IMG/VR virus record: IMGVR_UViG_3300045988_160394
Span: 32,001 to 96,000 of that record
Source of the DNA: a virus
DNA length: 64,000 nucleotides
Reading direction: 5' to 3' (one strand)
The first letter of the stretch is position 1; every line of letters begins with the position of its first letter. Of this stretch, positions 27,527 through 36,383 are shown one piece after another. Under the pieces are notes generated by a model that saw nothing but the letters and a program-made list of their open reading frames with translations, was not told the origin of the DNA and did no database searches. The position numbers were made by a program, and so were the translations under genes.

Positions 27527-28258
27527 ATGGATAAGTTTCAGATTAAGATATTAAACCCAGAAGAAGTAAAGACATTATTTAAACGTTGAGGGACGTTCGC
27601 ATGTAAATGTTATGACACTCCTGCTAAATATGCAGAAAGAGTTGGTAAATCATGCTTACAATCAGGACACTTTTCAGGATCAAGAAGTATATATATAGAA
27701 ATAGATGTTAGTAATGTACCTAGAGCTCTTGTAGATCAAATAATAAGAAGAGAACAAGGATGCGTTAAAAACGTTGAATCTGGTAGATATGTAGATTTCT
27801 CAGATTTTGATTATTATACTTCACCATTAATAGCTAATGATCCAATAGCTAAAGAGATATATGATGAACACATGAAAGCTACTAGAGAAGTTTATTCTTT
27901 ATTAGTTAAAAGATTAAATGAAAAAGGGATAACTGGTGAAAGAGCCTTTGAAGCAGCTAGAGGAGTTGCTCCTATGAACTATAGAACAGGTATGGTTCTA
28001 GGATTAACATTAGAAGCTTTAATAGGCTTATGTCATGAAAGATTATGTAGTAGAACTCAAGAACATTCTAGACATTTAATCAAGATGATAAGAGATGAGG
28101 TTCTAAAGCTTATACCTGAGTTAGAGCCATATTTAGTAGTGAAATGTGATTATCTACAATGGTGTCCAGAAGGAAGTAAATGTTGTGGTAGAAAACCAAC
28201 TAGAAAAGAATTCTTAGAATTTATTGATTCTAATAAAGTTAAAGGGAGTGTTAAGTAA
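27527..28258 (+). CDS. thyX: flavin-dependent thymidylate synthase, in-frame TGA at 27587
   Basis: ATG 27527 behind aggagg; RREQGCVKNVESGRY resembles ThyX RHRxxSxxxxSxRY; in frame with track ORF 27872..28258. Confidence 0.75.
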
Positions 28259-30888
28259 TGGCAAAGAATATAGTATTTAATTCAGATGCAAGAGAAAAGA
28301 TAAGACAAGGTGTCAATGTATTAGGAGATGCTGTTAGAGCAACTATGGGACCTAAAGGTAGAAATGCTATCTTAGAAAGAACACCTGGTTCTCCATTAAT
28401 AACTAACGATGGAGTTACTATAGCTAAAGAAATAGAATTAATAGACAATATAGAAAATATGGGAGCTCAAATAGTAAAAGAAGCAGCTATTAAGACTAAT
28501 GATGAGGCAGGAGATGGGCCACAACCTTTATATTCTAAAATATTAACACCTAATGGTTGGACTACTATGGGTGAAATAAAAAAAGGTGATGTTATATGTG
28601 GTACAAATAATACTCATCAAACAGTATTAGAAGTTTATCCTAAAGGGAAAAAAGAATTGGTTATAATTACATTCTCTAATGGCAAACAAGTTCATTGCTG
28701 TCAAGATCATTTATGGACTATAAATACAAGCTATGGAAAAAGAAAAACCATGACAACAAGAGAAATGATAAACAAAGGCGTATACAAACTTAATAGCCAA
28801 GGTGATAAAAGATATAATTTCTATACACCTTCTAACACAGTAGAGTTTCAAGAAAAAGAATTACCGATACATCCATACCTTTTAGGTGCTCTATTAGGAG
28901 ATGGCTCATTAACTGGGACAGGGAATATAGAATTAAGCTTAGGATATAATAAAGAGCACATAATAGAAAAAATATATCCGATATTACCTGACAATATACA
29001 AATATCAATACAGGATTGTTTAGACAAGAATTGTTATAGAGTCAAATTTTCAAAAATAGATAAAACTAATCCTATTTCTATGGAAAGTTTACTTAATGAA
29101 TTAAATCTATTAGGAACTAATAGTAAAAATAAATTTATACCTGAAATTTATTTATATAATTCAGTTGAAAATAGAACACAATTGTTAAATGGTTTAATAG
29201 ATACAGATGGATATAACAATAATAGAGGATTGTTTGAATTTTCTACTGTTAGCGATAAACTTAATGAATCCTTCACAGAATTAGTTAATAGCTTAGGAAT
29301 TCAAACATCATATACTTTACACAAAAGAGATAATGACTTATTATCTTATTCTTTCAATCCTATTCATAGACATACTCAATTAAAAGGTTATAAATATGGA
29401 ATAAAAATAGTAGATATTGAAGTTGTTAATAAACTAGAAGAAATGAAATGTATAAAAGTATCAAATCAAGATAATTTATATATAACAGATGGATATATAG
29501 TAACACACAACACTACTACAGCTACAGTTTTAGCACAAGCAATCATAAATGAAGGTTATAATGCTCTTTCTACAACTGAAGATGTTTCAGAAGAAGAAAA
29601 GAATCAATCTATATACAAAGGTGCCAATCCTGTTTTATTAAAGAAAGGTATAGAAATAGCTACTAAAATAGCAATAGATGAATTAAAAGCTATAGCTAAG
29701 CCTATAGAAACAGATGAAGAAATAAAACAAATAGCAACTATATCTTCTGCTAGTGATGATATAGGAGAATTAATATCTCAAGCTATTAAAAGAGTAGGTA
29801 AAGACGGTATAATTACTACTACTGAATCACATACTATAGAAACTACTTTAGAAGTTAAAGAAGGTTTTGAATTTGACAGAGGTTTTTATTCACCTTACTT
29901 TGCTGATGATCAAGAAAAAATAGAATCTGTTTTTTATAATCCATTAATACTTGTAAGTGATCAAAAGATGAGAACTCAACAAGAAATAGTACCTTTATTA
30001 GAACAAGTGTTAAAAGTTCAAAGACCTATAGTGTTTATAGTTGATGAAATAGAACAAATCGTATTCTCTTCTTTATTAAGAAATAAAATGAATGGGAATA
30101 TGGATGTAGCAGTAATAAAAGCACCTGGATTTGGGGCAAAAAGAAAAGAGCTATTACAAGATATAGCTATTTTAACAGGAGCAACTTTTATATCTGAAGA
30201 ATACGCTTTAACTATGTCAGAAGCTAGAATAAACTTATTAGGTTCATGCGAGTCTATAAAGATAACTAAAAATAATACTATTATATTTAATGGTTCTGGA
30301 GATAAAGAAGAAATAAATAAAAGAGCAGAACACATTAAGAATAGTATTAATGCTGATAATATATCAGAATACGATAAAGAAAAACTAGAAGAAAGATTAG
30401 CTAAAATAACAGGTGGTATAGCTACTATAAAAATAGGAGCTGCTACAGAGCCTGAATTAAAAGAGAAAAAGTTAAGAATAGAAGATGCTATTAATGCCAC
30501 TAAAGCAGCTATAGAAGAAGGAATAGTTGCAGGTGGTGGAACAGCTTTATTTAATCTTTCACCAGTAATATTAGAAAAGACTAAAAACTTAGTAGGAGAT
30601 GTATATCAAGGAGCATTATGTGTAGCATTAGCTGTTAATTCTCCAATAATACAAATAGCTATGAATGCAGGTGTAAATGCTACTAAGGTTATGGAAAATG
30701 TTTTAAAGACAGCTAAAGAAAAAAGCAATCCTAATATAGGATATGATGCTTATAATGATGCTTATGTTGATATGTTAGAAGTAGGAATAATAGATCCTGT
30801 AAAAGTTACTAGAAATGCATTACAAAATGCAGCTTCAGTAGCTGCTATACTGTTAACAACAGATGTAACTATAAGCAACTTTCAATAA
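28258..30888 (+). CDS. groL: GroEL chaperonin interrupted by an intein (545-aa extein)
   Basis: N-terminal AKNIVFN...GPKGRN...AGDG | intein | TTTATVLAQAI...; C-terminal GroEL equatorial domain. Confidence 0.9.
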   Translation: MAKNIVFNSDAREKIRQGVNVLGDAVRATMGPKGRNAILERTPGSPLITNDGVTIAKEIELIDNIENMGAQIVKEAAIKTNDEAGDGPQPLYSKILTPNGWTTMGEIKKGDVICGTNNTHQTVLEVYPKGKKELVIITFSNGKQVHCCQDHLWTINTSYGKRKTMTTREMINKGVYKLNSQGDKRYNFYTPSNTVEFQEKELPIHPYLLGALLGDGSLTGTGNIELSLGYNKEHIIEKIYPILPDNIQISIQDCLDKNCYRVKFSKIDKTNPISMESLLNELNLLGTNSKNKFIPEIYLYNSVENRTQLLNGLIDTDGYNNNRGLFEFSTVSDKLNESFTELVNSLGIQTSYTLHKRDNDLLSYSFNPIHRHTQLKGYKYGIKIVDIEVVNKLEEMKCIKVSNQDNLYITDGYIVTHNTTTATVLAQAIINEGYNALSTTEDVSEEEKNQSIYKGANPVLLKKGIEIATKIAIDELKAIAKPIETDEEIKQIATISSASDDIGELISQAIKRVGKDGIITTTESHTIETTLEVKEGFEFDRGFYSPYFADDQEKIESVFYNPLILVSDQKMRTQQEIVPLLEQVLKVQRPIVFIVDEIEQIVFSSLLRNKMNGNMDVAVIKAPGFGAKRKELLQDIAILTGATFISEEYALTMSEARINLLGSCESIKITKNNTIIFNGSGDKEEINKRAEHIKNSINADNISEYDKEKLEERLAKITGGIATIKIGAATEPELKEKKLRIEDAINATKAAIEEGIVAGGGTALFNLSPVILEKTKNLVGDVYQGALCVALAVNSPIIQIAMNAGVNATKVMENVLKTAKEKSNPNIGYDAYNDAYVDMLEVGIIDPVKVTRNALQNAASVAAILLTTDVTISNFQ
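28519..29511 (+). mobile_element. 331-aa LAGLIDADG intein in GroEL GDG/TTT ATP-binding motif, class-3-like (WCT)
   Basis: Starts Pro (PQPLYSKILTPNGW), block B CQDHLW, LLGALLGDGS and LLNGLIDTDGY, block F KCIKV, ends IVTHN followed by Thr. Confidence 0.85.
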
Positions 30889-31861: not shown

Positions 31862-32125
31862 ATGGTTGTATTTGTTATAATAGAAGAAACATTGTTTGAA
31901 AATGAAAATCCATTAAATGAAATTGTATATATAACTTCAAGTAAAGAAGATTGTTTAAGTACTCTTAATAGACAATATCGTTTAGCAATAGCTGATATGT
32001 GCAATAAAGCAGAAGGCGAACTTGACTTAAATAATATGACTTTTATAGTGAAAAGTATTGAAAATAATGATATTATTCGTGGCAGAATAGAACAGCATTA
32101 TGTTTATATGCAAGAGGAGGAATAA
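31862..32125 (+). CDS. small protein, paralogue of next gene
   Basis: Shared C-terminal RGRIEQHYV / TGRIERHVV. Confidence 0.5.
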   Translation: MVVFVIIEETLFENENPLNEIVYITSSKEDCLSTLNRQYRLAIADMCNKAEGELDLNNMTFIVKSIENNDIIRGRIEQHYVYMQEEE

Positions 32126-33524: not shown

Positions 33525-33911
33525 ATGATTAAGAATATAGAAAGTCTTCAAAAGATCTTAGAAGAAAGATGGTGCGTACGTAGCATAGAAGAATGTGAAA
33601 AGATATGGCTGAAATATTCTGAAATATATTTAAATGAAAAATGTGGCTATATAAGATCTGATAGAGAATGCTTTGAAGAATCTTTAAATATGGAAGTCAT
33701 TTTAGCTTTAGCAGAAAATTTAGATTTCTTATCTGAATATGCTAAAAACAAAATAAGTCTTCTTAAACAGTTTTCAAATCTTTATGATGATGTAGCAAAA
33801 GATGAAAAAACAAATGAAGATAAAGTAATAAGGTATAAAGAAATAAGCATACTATATTCAGCATTCATAAAAGATATAATAGCCTTAGATGCTTATCATT
33901 ATATACAGTAA
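33525..33911 (+). CDS. hypothetical protein
   Basis: ORF track. Confidence 0.55.
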   Translation: MIKNIESLQKILEERWCVRSIEECEKIWLKYSEIYLNEKCGYIRSDRECFEESLNMEVILALAENLDFLSEYAKNKISLLKQFSNLYDDVAKDEKTNEDKVIRYKEISILYSAFIKDIIALDAYHYIQ

Positions 33912-34044: not shown

Positions 34045-34073
34045 TTTACAAACATAAATAAATTTGATATATT
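34045..34073 (+). promoter_or_regulatory. sigma-70-like promoter candidate for the tRNA/ribozyme cluster
   Basis: TTTACA - 17 nt - TATATT, about 55 nt upstream of first tRNA; such matches are frequent in AT-rich DNA. Confidence 0.3.
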
Positions 34074-34128
34074 ATTTGTGGGACAAGTTTTAACAAATAA
34101 TATCGTAAATAAATATCAAATTTAAATT

Positions 34129-34247
34129 GCGGGTTTCACGTAGTTTGGTTAGCGTTCTGGTCTTCAAAACCAGTGACAGGCACCATGTTCGACATGCTTT
34201 AATGTTTTGGTTATAAGTCTGCGGGGGTTCGAATCCCTCAACCCGTG
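34129..34247 (+). tRNA. tRNA with anticodon UCA (UGA-decoding, Trp-like anticodon arm), 49-nt insertion in variable region, no encoded CCA
   Basis: Acceptor gcgggtt/aacccgt, D arm acgt/gcgt, anticodon arm ctggt-cttcaaa-accag (anticodon 34164..34166), T arm ggggg-ttcgaat-ccctc. Confidence 0.6.
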
Positions 34248-34317
34248 GTCTCTCATTTAGTAAGCCTCCACGTTGGCGAGAGACGGAAACAAAATTACTA
34301 TTTTGGCTAATTACTAA
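34248..34317 (+). ncRNA. HDV-like (theta-type) self-cleaving ribozyme abutting the tRNA 3' end
   Basis: P1 gtctctc/gagagac, P2 ttagtaa/ttactaa, P3 gcc/ggc with L3 tccacgtt, GG for P1.1, short P4 caaaa/ttttg, J4/2 gCtaa. Confidence 0.8.
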
Positions 34318-34339
34318 GAAATCTTTATGGAGGGTTTAT

Positions 34340-34966
34340 ATGGAAGGTTATATTTATAAAATAACTAATAGCTTAAATAATAAATGTTATATAGGCAAAA
34401 CATATAAATCTATCCAACAAAGATGGAAAGAACATTTAAAATCCTGTAAAAAAGGAGAATGTTCTAATAGACCTTTATACAAGGCTATTAATAAATACGG
34501 TGTTGGCAACTTTTCTATAGAAGAATTAGGAAAGTTTGAAGAAGGTATTTTAGAAGAAAAAGAAATATATTATATAGATAAATATGATTCATATAATAAT
34601 GGCTATAACGCTACATTAGGTGGAGATGGGAAAAGATATTTCCAATATACCGATAAAGAAGTTATAGATGAATACCTTAAAACTAAAAACTTAAATATAA
34701 CATCAAAATACTTCAATTGTGATGTAGATACTATAAAAAGAATATTAGAATCTAATAGTATCGAAACATTAACAGCTAAAGAATCTATAAAAAATACTTA
34801 TGGAAGAACAGTATTAAAATATTCTTTAGATGAAGAGTTAATAGCTAAATATGAAACAGTTTCTGACGCAGCTAAAGAATTTGATAAAGGCTCTCCTGGT
34901 TCAATATCAAGATGTTGCAGAGGATTAAGAAAGACATATAAAGGTTTCATATGGAGATATTCTTAG
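34340..34966 (+). CDS. GIY-YIG homing endonuclease (I-TevI-like)
   Basis: GYIYKITN...CYIGKT...RWKEH...YNATLGGDG. Confidence 0.85.
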   Translation: MEGYIYKITNSLNNKCYIGKTYKSIQQRWKEHLKSCKKGECSNRPLYKAINKYGVGNFSIEELGKFEEGILEEKEIYYIDKYDSYNNGYNATLGGDGKRYFQYTDKEVIDEYLKTKNLNITSKYFNCDVDTIKRILESNSIETLTAKESIKNTYGRTVLKYSLDEELIAKYETVSDAAKEFDKGSPGSISRCCRGLRKTYKGFIWRYS

Positions 34967-35044
34967 TAATAAAGACTTTTTCATACATACATTTCTCATA
35001 ATTGAGTAATATAGGTCACAAGTTGAAATATATTTGTGACTAGC

Positions 35045-35122
35045 GTCTTTCAACTAACAAGCCTCCTCGTGGCGAAAGATGGAAACAGATAGAAGTAAAA
35101 TAATTATCTGGCTAATTGTTAG
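35045..35122 (+). ncRNA. second HDV-like ribozyme copy, just upstream of tRNA-Gln
   Basis: P1 gtctttc/gaaagat (G.U at cleavage site), P2 ctaacaa/ttgttag, P3 gcc/ggc, L3 tcctcgt, P4 agata/tatct, J4/2 ggCtaa; stems co-vary with copy 1. Confidence 0.75.
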
Positions 35123-35129
35123 AAAATAT

Positions 35130-35204
35130 TGCGGTATAGCCAAGTGGAAAGGCAGCTGACTTTGACTCAGCTATGCGTAGGTTCAATTCCTACTACCGCT
35201 GCCA
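35130..35204 (+). tRNA. tRNA-Gln (UUG), CCA encoded
   Basis: Cloverleaf folded by hand; anticodon loop cttTTGac; U1.U72 mismatch. Confidence 0.8.
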
Positions 35205-35208
35205 ATAA

Positions 35209-35285
35209 TGTGGTGTAGCTCAATCGGTTAGAGCATACGTCTGATAAGCGTAAGGTTACAAGTTCAATTCTTGTCACCACAACCA
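35209..35285 (+). tRNA. tRNA-Ile (GAU), CCA encoded
   Basis: Acceptor tgtggtg/caccaca, loop ctGATaa. Confidence 0.9.
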
Positions 35286-35341
35286 CAACTAGATTAAAAT
35301 ATTCTAGTAAAAATATATGGTGTATATATTTGCGATGTAAA

Positions 35342-35434
35342 TAAGATAAAGCTCAGCCAGGTTAGAGCACATGGGTTATTATGAGGCATTGTAATAATAC
35401 TTTGGAGTCGTGGGTTCAAATCCCACTATCTTAT
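35342..35434 (+). tRNA. tRNA-like element with canonical acceptor, D and T arms but 18 extra nt in the anticodon region
   Basis: Acceptor taagata/tatctta, D gctc/gagc, T gtggg/cccac; anticodon not assignable. Confidence 0.4.
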
Positions 35435-35443
35435 TTATATTAA

Positions 35444-35520
35444 TGCGGTATAGCTTAGTTGGTAAAAGCCCTCGATTCATAACCGAGAGATCACAAGTTC
35501 GAATCTTGTTACCGCAACCA
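35444..35520 (+). tRNA. tRNA (CAU): elongator Met or Ile2, CCA encoded
   Basis: Acceptor tgcggta/taccgca, loop ttCATaa; no initiator features. Confidence 0.85.
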
Positions 35521-35530
35521 TTATATTAAA

Positions 35531-35625
35531 GGTTGATTCTCCAGCCTGGAGGTGAGAAGTTGATAAAACACTCACTAAACGCCATAAAAGGTAATCACGA
35601 ATGTGAGCGTGTGATTAACTATTTT
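35531..35625 (+). ncRNA. orphan third copy of the tracrRNA-like scaffold, between two tRNAs
   Basis: ggttgattctccagcct..gtgag..ctcactaaacgcc..gcgtgt collinear with 19721 and 20085 copies. Confidence 0.45.
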
Positions 35626-35663
35626 ATATAGTAGAAGAGTCCCTTATCTTCCTCTATTGTTAT

Positions 35664-35738
35664 GGGAATATAGTACAAAGGTTAGTACAATCGGCTGTTA
35701 ACCGATAGATCCTGGTTCGATTCCATGTATTCCCGCCA
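35664..35738 (+). tRNA. tRNA-Asn (GUU), CCA encoded
   Basis: Acceptor gggaata/tattccc, loop ctGTTaa; one T-stem mismatch. Confidence 0.8.
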
Positions 35739-35840
35739 TTTACTTACTCTCACATATATCATAAATATATAATTAAATTTTTATTCAACAAAAAGTGTGC
35801 ACTTTATTTAACACAATGACATACTTAAACCCCTGTAATG

Positions 35841-35866
35841 AGAAGTCTCGAAAGAGGCTTCTTTTT
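35841..35866 (+). terminator. intrinsic terminator closing the tRNA cluster
   Basis: agaagtctc-gaaa-gaggcttct plus T5. Confidence 0.75.
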
Positions 35867-35909
35867 ATATAGATGGTCTTTTCAAATTAATATAAGGAGA
35901 ATGATTGAT

Positions 35910-36383
35910 ATGAATAATGTTATTGAAATTGATTTAGATAATCTTAATTCAAATGAAAACCAATCATTATTAGAAGTTATTAATAAGCTTAATGATAATG
36001 TTAAGGTTAGATTTAATTTTGATTATGAAGAAATTCTAGACATGTTTTATTTTTATGTTAAAATAAATAATGAGCATGTCCAAGATATAGAATCCTATTC
36101 ATGTATAGATCCAGAGATTACTTTAAAAGAAGATGGTAATATTTATTTTGATTTAGGATTTATAGATGATGAAGAAGATATTTCAGATATTAAGTTTTTA
36201 ATAGCTGAATTTAAACAAATGTTTGGAATAAACTTAAAAAGGCAAGTAAGATTAAAACAGTTATTACAAGTAATGTTTATGAATTGTAATGAATGCATCT
36301 TACAAAATAATTTTGTTTCTGTCAGTTACTATTATGAAAATTATAATAATAGCTGGTTAAAAAAATATATAGAAAATAATTAA
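35910..36383 (+). CDS. hypothetical protein
   Basis: ATG 35910 behind aaggaga; track start 35838 overlaps the terminator. Confidence 0.55.
   Translation: MNNVIEIDLDNLNSNENQSLLEVINKLNDNVKVRFNFDYEEILDMFYFYVKINNEHVQDIESYSCIDPEITLKEDGNIYFDLGFIDDEEDISDIKFLIAEFKQMFGINLKRQVRLKQLLQVMFMNCNECILQNNFVSVSYYYENYNNSWLKKYIENN

Follow-up and report, generated by a model that had tools for sequence, protein, structure and literature searches.

In a 64,000-nucleotide stretch of viral DNA (positions 32,001 to 96,000 of IMG/VR virus record IMGVR_UViG_3300045988_160394; hereafter the window), a gene for a GIY-YIG endonuclease lies inside a tRNA operon, directly behind a predicted self-cleaving ribozyme with the fold of the hepatitis delta virus (HDV) family. 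Ribozymes of the HDV family cleave at their own 5′ terminus, so that the ribozyme starts with a 5′-OH and the RNA upstream ends in a 2′,3′-cyclic phosphate. GIY-YIG homing enzymes cut alleles that lack their own cassette, and repair of the break copies the gene in. Judging from comparison with relatives, we consider it likely that positions 34248-34981 form a free-standing GIY-YIG homing cassette whose first 70 nt are an HDV-like ribozyme, and which inserted after the discriminator nucleotide of a tRNA with anticodon UCA, displacing the CCA that the tRNA gene had encoded. A second HDV-like ribozyme lies downstream of the gene, and we refer to the two as copy 1 and copy 2.

Near-identical genomes either have both ribozyme 1 and the endonuclease gene or lack both. 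Relatives were reached through an exact-protein look-up of the upstream gene, which returned contigs from five independent samples, some with the cassette (filled) and some without it (empty). Searches of IMG/VR with the flanking proteins 33525-33911 and 35838-36383 gave no relatives, and a DNA search of GenBank phages gave tRNA-level and short GIY-YIG matches only, with no relative of the window among them. In contigs L003, L004 and L006, tRNA-Gln lies 733 nt nearer the upstream gene than it does in the window and in contig L005. Empty alleles read ...CAACCCGTG-CCA-TACATACATTTC..., and filled alleles read ...CAACCCGTG-(34248..34981)-CA-TACATACATTTC...; around the insertion site, the L003-type empty allele has the sequence ...CCCGTGCCATACATAC.... 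The allele alignment therefore defines the insertion/deletion (indel) as ribozyme 1, a 22-nt linker with a Shine-Dalgarno-like sequence, the GIY-YIG open reading frame (ORF) and 15 nt more. It stands directly 3′ of discriminator G73, and the first C of the encoded CCA has been removed or mutated. The initial annotation of this region, made from the window sequence alone, had proposed a comparison of relatives for precise presence or absence, and the answer is clean, an exact 734-nt indel. Its candidate for the variable segment was 34318-35122, which comprises the gene and copy 2, and this was misplaced. Of the mobile ribozyme-plus-endonuclease cassette that it envisaged, the cassette does exist, but its target was not a ribozyme-terminated tRNA gene: the tRNA of the empty alleles ends in an encoded CCA, and copy 2 follows 57 nt further on.

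Every allele (window and L003-L006) retains copy 2 together with the preceding 57-nt spacer and the following 7 nt; the one change in copy 2 is an A-to-G in L004 and L006 that turns a U-A pair of helix P1 into U·G. Immediately beside the indel, the alleles have almost the same tRNA operon sequence. In a 1,500-nt stretch of left flank, L005 has 19-22 differences from the empty genomes and 72 from the window, and the alleles of the right flank are re-assorted too. The two filled alleles stand on different backbones, and thus the presence of the cassette is not simply inherited with the genome. These comparisons also bear on whether the empty alleles could be secondary deletions of a vertically inherited, immobile cassette with a dead endonuclease. 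Loss of the endonuclease gene does happen, as in L260 and L231 (described below), but such deletions would have had to recreate a perfect GCCA end like those of the four neighbouring tRNAs, the cassette occurs on two different flanking haplotypes, and the endonuclease ORF is intact, with all catalytic residues kept and a protein that is 99% identical between two samples. We judge this explanation quite improbable. The tRNA array is also mosaic in content among close relatives, with extra genes for tRNA-Ser(GCT), -Ser(TGA), -Tyr and -Pro (L003 11270-11870; L006 11268-11355; L011 3796-4420). A drum RNA is found in L011 (4191-4319, 51.5 bits), and a homologous stretch was seen by eye in L003.

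The endonuclease ORF matches Pfam PF01541 (3.2e-9) and a PHROG homing endonuclease profile that spans its full length (3.7e-32). Its N-terminal 90 residues align to the catalytic domain of I-TevI (1MK0, residues 2-91; E 2e-12), so that its first identification as a GIY-YIG enzyme stands. Residues Y6, Y17, R28, H32, E75 and N90 are invariant in a family alignment of 26 homologs. At the C terminus there is a NUMOD1 match below the cut-off (E 0.0061, 17.2 bits; cut-off 22.8).

Both ribozyme copies have an HDV-like layout, with a 7-bp P1 starting at nucleotide 1, P2, a 3-bp P3, a loop L3 starting UCC, a two-pair P1.1, P4 and the joining segment J4/2 with CUAA. In copy 1, P1 pairs GTCTCTC (34248-54) with GAGAGAC (34278-84), P2 pairs TTAGTAA (34257-63) with TTACTAA (34311-17), P3 is GCC/GGC, L3 is UCCACGUU, the GG of P1.1 is at 34285-86, and the P4 hairpin is followed by the CUAA of J4/2. 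In copy 2, P1 is GTCTTTC/GAAAGAT, yielding a G1·U wobble, and P2 is CTAACAA/TTGTTAG; P3, L3 (UCCUCGU), GG and CUAA are the same as in copy 1, and the P4 sequence is unrelated, yet paired. On re-reading the sequence, the positions, stems and sequences that the initial annotation gave for both copies all hold, and so do its conserved L3/P3/J4-2 core (the same P3, UCC start of L3, GG and CUAA in both) and its placement of copy 2, which starts 78 nt past the GIY-YIG stop codon and ends 7 nt before tRNA-Gln at 35130. The compensatory stem differences that it pointed out are borne out as well. An alignment of five related copies has double changes at four pairs, one in P1 and three in P2, and 98.9% of its P1/P2/P3/P1.1 cells are paired, compared with 33-64% when the 3′ partners are slid.

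The Rfam family HDV-F-prausnitzii (RF02682) aligns full-length to both copies in a 2-kb search, at 36.0 bits (E 1.7e-4) and 31.4 bits (E 1.9e-3), in both cases under the gathering score of 44. Alignments made with MAFFT put minimal ribozymes and those with a P4 out of register, and explicit structure descriptors, with shuffled, antisense and positional controls, were therefore used in place of a covariance model. The descriptor found only these two sites on both strands of the window and 0.0 sites per replicate in ten shuffles of 500 kb. The cleavage site of copy 1 is 0 nt past G73, within the ≤5 nt from a tRNA 3′ end that defines the tRNA-associated class; copy 2, at 57 nt beyond the CCA in the empty allele, falls outside it. 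We considered the 57-nt spacer 5′ of copy 2 as a decayed tRNA 3′ half, but a T-arm-like hairpin alone supports this, with no Rfam match, and we set it aside as speculation. Because both cores are intact, cuts at 34247/34248 and 35044/35045 are plausible, and would give a 5′-OH mRNA with a cyclic-phosphate 3′ end.

More distant relatives separate the two copies. The closest homolog of the endonuclease outside the window population (77% amino-acid identity) is encoded on a 195-kb contig, L011, in the order tRNA(UCA), ribozyme, 21-nt linker and GIY-YIG gene, with tRNA-Gln 5 nt past the stop codon. Compared with the window unit, its ribozyme is 82% identical (84% in the core, 47/56 positions), its linker is homologous and its ORF is 80% identical in DNA; there is no second ribozyme in the L011 cassette locus. 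A third lineage with tRNA(UCA), ribozyme and GIY-YIG gene is L021, whose enzyme is the nearest neighbour of the window and L011 enzymes in a distance tree. Copy 2 is present in all empty alleles and the L011 unit lacks it, and therefore the mobile unit is ribozyme 1 plus the endonuclease. The gene does lie between two copies in the window, as first described. However, the endonuclease co-varies with copy 1 and not with copy 2, so the two-ribozyme bracket is incidental and not a design feature; copy 2 is a resident and is absent from L011 and from the other cassettes examined.

The initial annotation also offered a second history, in which copy 1 is a duplicate of copy 2 that was made when the endonuclease invaded. 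The two copies do belong to one subfamily (P1 GTCTYTC, P3 GCC/GGC and GGAAAC after P1) and share 44/56 core positions. Yet their cores are 21% diverged and their P4 stems unrelated, while the flanks of the indel are almost identical between alleles, which argues against any recent event. Copy 1 is moreover nearer the L011 ribozyme, which travels with a gene (47/56), than it is to copy 2 (44/56), and no second ribozyme copy is found in any other cassette examined. A duplication at invasion is thus very unlikely, and by their sequences the copies are old paralogs. A third HDV-like ribozyme of the same subfamily occurs at L011 4419-4534, after a tRNA-Ser(GCT)-CCA-TAT, with a ~65-nt insertion in P4 and no endonuclease behind it. 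In the tRNA array region of another relative (L014 1-1906), a gene for the RNA ligase RtcB, an RNA-repair gene near tRNAs and homing elements, is split by a LAGLIDADG-type insertion.

The ordered unit of tRNA or transfer-messenger RNA (tmRNA) end, ribozyme, 14-65 nt with a ribosome-binding site, and GIY-YIG gene recurs behind many different tRNAs. Survey counts given here refer to the first 80-120 matches listed. Across 160 loci with homologous GIY-YIG genes, a strict descriptor gave 12 matches, all on the gene strand; each ribozyme begins right after a tRNA 3′ end and ends 14-65 nt before the gene. There were no further matches elsewhere in the ~1 Mb of scanned strand, and 0 in shuffles. A thirteenth case, L170, was found in a relaxed scan only, with the ribozyme behind a tmRNA. 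A broader descriptor applied to the 220 nt 5′ of the gene was positive at 18/148 loci (at least 12%), and antisense, downstream and far-upstream controls at the 148 loci each gave 0; several further loci carry ribozyme variants that were recognised by eye and missed by every descriptor.

The association was also approached from the side of the ribozyme. Theta ribozymes are minimal HDV-like ribozymes directly 3′ of phage tRNAs, which cut in vitro directly after the tRNAs (Kienbeck et al. 2024, PMC10879173). A core-pattern sample of IMG/VR held 52 descriptor-positive theta ribozymes, 46 of them with at least 700 nt of downstream sequence. Within 1 kb and on the same strand, 15 of these 46 (11 of 37 unique sequences) are followed by a gene of the GIY-YIG family, and every positive case has a tRNA-like T-arm directly 5′. 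Rfam detected no other ribozyme class between tRNA and GIY-YIG gene in 16 loci. Several ribozyme-linked GIY-YIG genes contain in-frame TAG codons, and so point to an origin in recoded phages. An unannotated GenBank record, MT837398.1, contains a tRNA-Met cassette. We found no phage isolate that carries the cassette, and in the three cultured crAss-like phages whose homologs were inspected (crAss001, Kolpuevirus 'frurule' and PhiCrAssBcn18) the GIY-YIG gene lies between protein-coding genes, not behind tRNAs.

The survey turned up several variants of this arrangement. At L170 1128-1480 and L137 915-1500, tmRNA genes (Rfam 64.3 and 56.3 bits) are directly followed by a theta-type ribozyme and a GIY-YIG gene; cassettes are therefore not limited to true tRNAs. 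HDV-like variants with L3 UUC or UGC, not UCC, lie between tRNA and GIY-YIG gene in L016, L017, L043, L045, L123, L143, L147 and L172. In L017, which has UGC, the nucleotides after P1 are GC and compensate for the change in P1.1; the UUC forms seem to retain only one P1.1 pair, and these L3 variants may fall outside the published theta motif. L142 (~1414-1480), L083 and L167 have a conserved ~60-nt element at the position of the ribozyme, GGGAAGCGGA..GCTAGCTAC..ACGAGAT.AAGGATGCCCTA.CATCC.GCC, in which GGATG/CATCC and GAATG/CATTC covary and which matches no Rfam family. Within 1.5 kb of family GIY-YIG genes we also observed a ROOL RNA (295.8 bits, L108 2628-3203) and a group I intron (87.3 bits, L175 3101-3352).

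Several of these loci carry signs that ribozyme and gene move together. At 7 of the 20 ribozyme-GIY-YIG loci listed, which represent six distinct cassettes, the gene is directly followed by an exact repeat of the last 12-17 nt of the tRNA, up to the discriminator, and behind the repeat stands an apparent native trailer or, in L293, CCA. No such repeat occurs at ribozyme loci without a GIY-YIG gene (0/35). The repeats enclose ribozyme and gene together, not the gene alone. For two cassettes, the empty-site sequence predicted from repeat and trailer was found, in 34 loci for tRNA-Leu and 15 loci for tRNA-Met. Two pairs of near-isogenic loci, L295/L342 and L208/L321, are 99.6-99.8% identical in the upstream flank; each consists of an empty site with tRNA and trailer and no ribozyme, and a filled site that reads tRNA, ribozyme, gene, repeat, trailer. 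In L208/L321 the upstream flank is 99.8% identical and the downstream flank only ~80%, an asymmetry that resembles the trace of co-conversion on one side by a diverged donor. Over 21 cassettes, ribozyme distances correlate with endonuclease distances (Mantel r 0.62, p 2e-4), and cassette-linked enzymes are mutual nearest neighbours in 14/21 cases, against a background of 15%.

These patterns were weighed against a rival account in which the ribozymes are resident tRNA 3′-processing elements, as in the published view of theta ribozymes, and the transcribed stretch behind them is just a safe landing place for endonuclease genes; ribozyme and gene would then form no unit. GIY-YIG genes of this family do generally sit behind tRNAs; at 73/148 homolog loci a same-strand tRNA ends within 200 nt upstream. 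The observations that count against a joint cassette are the following. Most tRNA-linked GIY-YIG genes lie 4-40 nt behind the tRNA without a ribozyme, and about two thirds (~67%) of the sampled theta ribozymes have no endonuclease behind them. L260 has the tRNA and ribozyme of L293, but neither gene, repeat nor CCA, and therefore some cases could be endonucleases that landed behind resident ribozymes. The cassette of the window has no flanking repeat, and its right junction is uninformative on the first insertion. Its ribozymes score below the Rfam gathering threshold, and have P4 hairpins of 20 and 29 nt versus the 6-nt L4 of published theta examples. Finally, IMG 3300045988 dominates the survey counts.

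The absence of a ribozyme from most tRNA-linked family members indicates that the ribozyme is an optional accessory, not required for a tRNA-linked lifestyle. As for the resident-ribozyme explanation, the empty site lacks the ribozyme too in three independent near-isogenic comparisons, the tRNA-end repeats are placed around both parts, and the distances of ribozyme and gene correlate. Because L293 retains the displaced tRNA end and CCA behind its gene, L260 is best read as gene loss from an earlier unit; L231, similarly, has a truncated gene start ('MGYIYQ') behind a lone ribozyme, although this is the only decayed endonuclease remnant among 33 loci with lone theta ribozymes. We therefore regard resident ribozymes with independently landing genes as an unlikely account of the whole, while landing of a gene behind a pre-existing ribozyme may have occurred at sites without a known empty allele.

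If ribozyme and endonuclease form one cassette, as we favour, its operation may be pictured as follows. The operon would be transcribed from the promoter-like site near 34045 through the tRNA, the cassette and the downstream tRNAs. No convincing promoter was found for the cassette itself, so it would be read through from the tRNA promoter. Ribozyme 1 would cut at its own first nucleotide and leave the tRNA at G73 with a 2′,3′-cyclic phosphate, which would have to be taken off before CCA is added. The same cut would free an endonuclease mRNA with a 5′-OH start, a compact double pseudoknot and a ribosome-binding site 11 nt past the fold. The pseudoknot, presumably stable, may shield this 5′ end, a role also suggested for the 5′ ribozyme of R2 retrotransposons (PMC11331408). 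Since one cut would make both the tRNA end and the mRNA, the insertion would be cheap for the tRNA, and the selfish gene would get a separate mRNA with no need for its own promoter. The endonuclease would cut cassette-free alleles near the tRNA 3′ end, and repair would copy the cassette in. Ribozyme 2, the older resident, would in the window allele trim the mRNA 3 nt after a 10-bp hairpin, detaching tRNA-Gln and leaving the mRNA 3′ end protected by the hairpin; the whole 78-nt stretch 34967-35044, which forms this hairpin and a smaller one, has a minimum free energy of -15.2 kcal/mol.

The window has 27% G+C, carries essentially all its genes on the + strand and exactly matches a section of the 263-kb metagenomic contig ENA ERZ1756024 NODE_19. 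Its gene content looks like that of a jumbo phage, with a GroEL that contains an intein, NAD-dependent DNA ligase, gyrase, ClpP, ThyX and an RNA-repair fusion protein. The tRNA operon spans 34045-35863 in the order tRNA(UCA), ribozyme 1/GIY-YIG/ribozyme 2, tRNA-Gln, -Ile, -Met and -Asn (Table 1). The promoter-like site at its head is weak evidence, because the regional count of such sites is not above shuffled expectation.

Table 1. Features of the tRNA operon and the cassette, in window coordinates
Feature	Position	Strand	Remarks
Promoter-like site (TTTACA, 17 nt, TG-TATATT)	34045..34073	+	~55 nt 5′ of tRNA operon; 10/12 consensus positions, extended -10
tRNA, anticodon UCA	34129..34247	+	variable region ~46 nt; G1·U72 pair; discriminator G73 at 34247; CCA not encoded in window allele
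Cassette insert	34248..34981	+	734 nt in window and L005; single C instead in L003, L004 and L006
Ribozyme copy 1, HDV-like (theta-type)	34248..34317	+	5′ edge of cassette; predicted cut 34247/34248; candidate catalytic C at 34307
Shine-Dalgarno-like GGAGGG	34329..34334	+	5 nt before ATG, 11 nt past end of ribozyme 1 P2; homologous linker in L011
GIY-YIG homing endonuclease gene	34340..34966	+	208 amino acids; stop codon 34964-66
TCA, remnant of the earlier encoded CCA of tRNA(UCA)	34981..34983	+	now 3′ of cassette; from alignment with empty alleles
Resident spacer	34982..35044	+	in all alleles; 10-bp hairpin 35014-35041 ends 3 nt before ribozyme 2
Ribozyme copy 2, HDV-like	35045..35122	+	resident, outside cassette; predicted cut 35044/35045; candidate catalytic C at 35112
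tRNA-Gln	35130..35204	+	CCA encoded
tRNA-Ile	35209..35285	+	CCA encoded
tRNA-Met	35444..35520	+	CCA encoded
tRNA-Asn	35664..35738	+	CCA encoded
Terminator-like hairpin and T run	35840..35863	+	closes operon

The tRNA with anticodon UCA matches the Rfam tRNA family at 47.9 bits and has the same sequence in five related contigs. Its variable region is very long. ARAGORN does not call it. The GIY-YIG loci L021 and L152 likewise lie behind UCA tRNAs, which ARAGORN labels tRNA-SeC. Among 46 long ORFs of the window the stop codon is TAA in 36, TAG in 9 and TGA in only 1, and no convincing read-through ORFs indicative of TGA or TAG recoding were found inside the window. Two stretches between the downstream tRNAs are conserved in relatives. 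One, at 35330-35435, is tRNA-like, with good acceptor, D and T arms and an over-long anticodon arm, and has neither an ARAGORN call nor an Rfam match above threshold; the other, at 35521-35663 between tRNA-Met and tRNA-Asn, is untranslated.

Elsewhere in the window, positions 57093-59285 encode a fusion of polynucleotide kinase, metallophosphoesterase and Rnl1-type RNA ligase, which could be a healer of the 2′,3′-cyclic phosphate tRNA ends that ribozyme cuts would leave; a scan of 20 larger window ORFs gave no match to a CCA-adding enzyme. Another selfish element of the window is an intein, carrying a LAGLIDADG homing-endonuclease domain, that splits the GroEL gene (28258-30888). A TnpB/Cas12f-like ORF (18296-19636, + strand) adjoins at least three CRISPR-DR3-like repeats on the minus strand (19889-20307), and together (18296-20307) they look like a small phage-borne array.

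Theta ribozymes are the nearest known relatives of the RNA part of the cassette (PMC10879173). Shared with them are the fold, the 7-bp P1, the 3-bp P3, the UCC of L3, the GG for P1.1, the CUAA with the catalytic C and the order of segments. Copy 1 also begins right after the tRNA discriminator, and its tRNA has no encoded CCA and a stop-codon anticodon. Unlike theta examples, the window copies have true P4 hairpins in place of a short L4, and copy 2 is not adjacent to a tRNA. The theta paper treats the ribozymes as devices of tRNA maturation and recoding (PMC10879173), whereas here the ribozyme would be the leading edge of a mobile endonuclease cassette; the terms endonuclease, homing and GIY are absent from its main text, and appear in its supplements only in generic gene tables.

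The protein part has a counterpart in SegB, a free-standing GIY-YIG homing endonuclease in the tRNA gene cluster of phage T4 whose recognition includes a T-psi-C stem-loop motif; like the window gene, it lies among phage tRNA genes and is absent from close relatives (PMC2330249). It differs in that the insertion described here is exactly at the boundary of discriminator and CCA, and that the cassette brings a self-cleaving RNA. We know of no ribozyme described with segB. By analogy, the range of tRNAs and tmRNAs behind which the cassette occurs hints at T-psi-C recognition by the window enzyme, and recognition of this kind would account for a family associated with so many tRNA types as well as with tmRNA.

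Other selfish elements combine ribozymes with insertion into RNA genes. R2 and other non-long-terminal-repeat retrotransposons have a 5′ HDV-like ribozyme that frees the message, and whose fold is proposed to protect the uncapped 5′ end (PMC11331408). They share with the cassette a mobile element in a structural RNA gene, co-transcription and an HDV-like ribozyme at the 5′ junction (PMC11331408). R2, a eukaryotic element, spreads by way of RNA and reverse transcription and disables the rRNA copy into which it inserts; the cassette, in contrast, would be a phage element homing at the DNA level, and its predicted cut would also make the functional end of the host tRNA. The lariat-capping ribozyme GIR1 of twin-ribozyme introns is another small ribozyme that forms the 5′ end of a homing-endonuclease mRNA, but it has a different fold and chemistry (a 2′,5′ lariat cap), and is eukaryotic, nucleolar and nested in a group I intron. 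Group I introns that carry homing endonuclease genes inside tRNA genes of phages and bacteria (PMC3984707) likewise have a ribozyme that makes a selfish insertion nearly neutral. The cassette, by comparison, would make a single cut with no splicing or ligation, lies past the mature tRNA and has a ribozyme of ~70 nt versus several hundred. The region has no match to a group I intron, and the insertion is outside the mature tRNA body, which sets it apart from mobile introns. Theta ribozymes, GIY-YIG homing enzymes and homing in tRNA clusters are thus already known; for a self-cleaving ribozyme that leads a free-standing homing cassette at a tRNA 3′ end, we found no description. Full-text literature searches returned no self-cleaving or HDV-like ribozyme tied to phage homing endonucleases; many subscription papers lie outside their coverage, so that this does not prove absence.

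We tentatively put forward a broader possibility, that theta ribozymes originated as the leading edge of a kind of selfish element so far overlooked, a ribozyme-capped GIY-YIG homing cassette that enters phage tRNA and tmRNA genes at their 3′ ends, and that several of their published features are by-products of invasion and decay, not a dedicated system of tRNA regulation for recoding. Were this true, many theta ribozymes that stand alone beside a tRNA would be remnants of cassettes whose gene has decayed, kept because the tRNA 3′ end depends on the ribozyme. The occurrence of the same ribozyme beside up to 13 tRNA isotypes, and the near absence of encoded CCA from theta-linked tRNAs, would be explained as by-products, and the spread of theta ribozymes between unrelated tRNA genes would have a simple route. 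The pairs of filled and empty alleles, with definable target sites, make these ideas directly testable, and the cassettes are a possible source of new tRNA-gene-specific nucleases and of compact self-processing expression modules. Small phage HDV-like ribozymes would gain a second role, insulating a host tRNA from a selfish insertion while making a promoter-less endonuclease message; the arrangement would be the cut-only equivalent of mobile group I introns and, at the level of DNA, a parallel to the 5′ ribozyme of R2.

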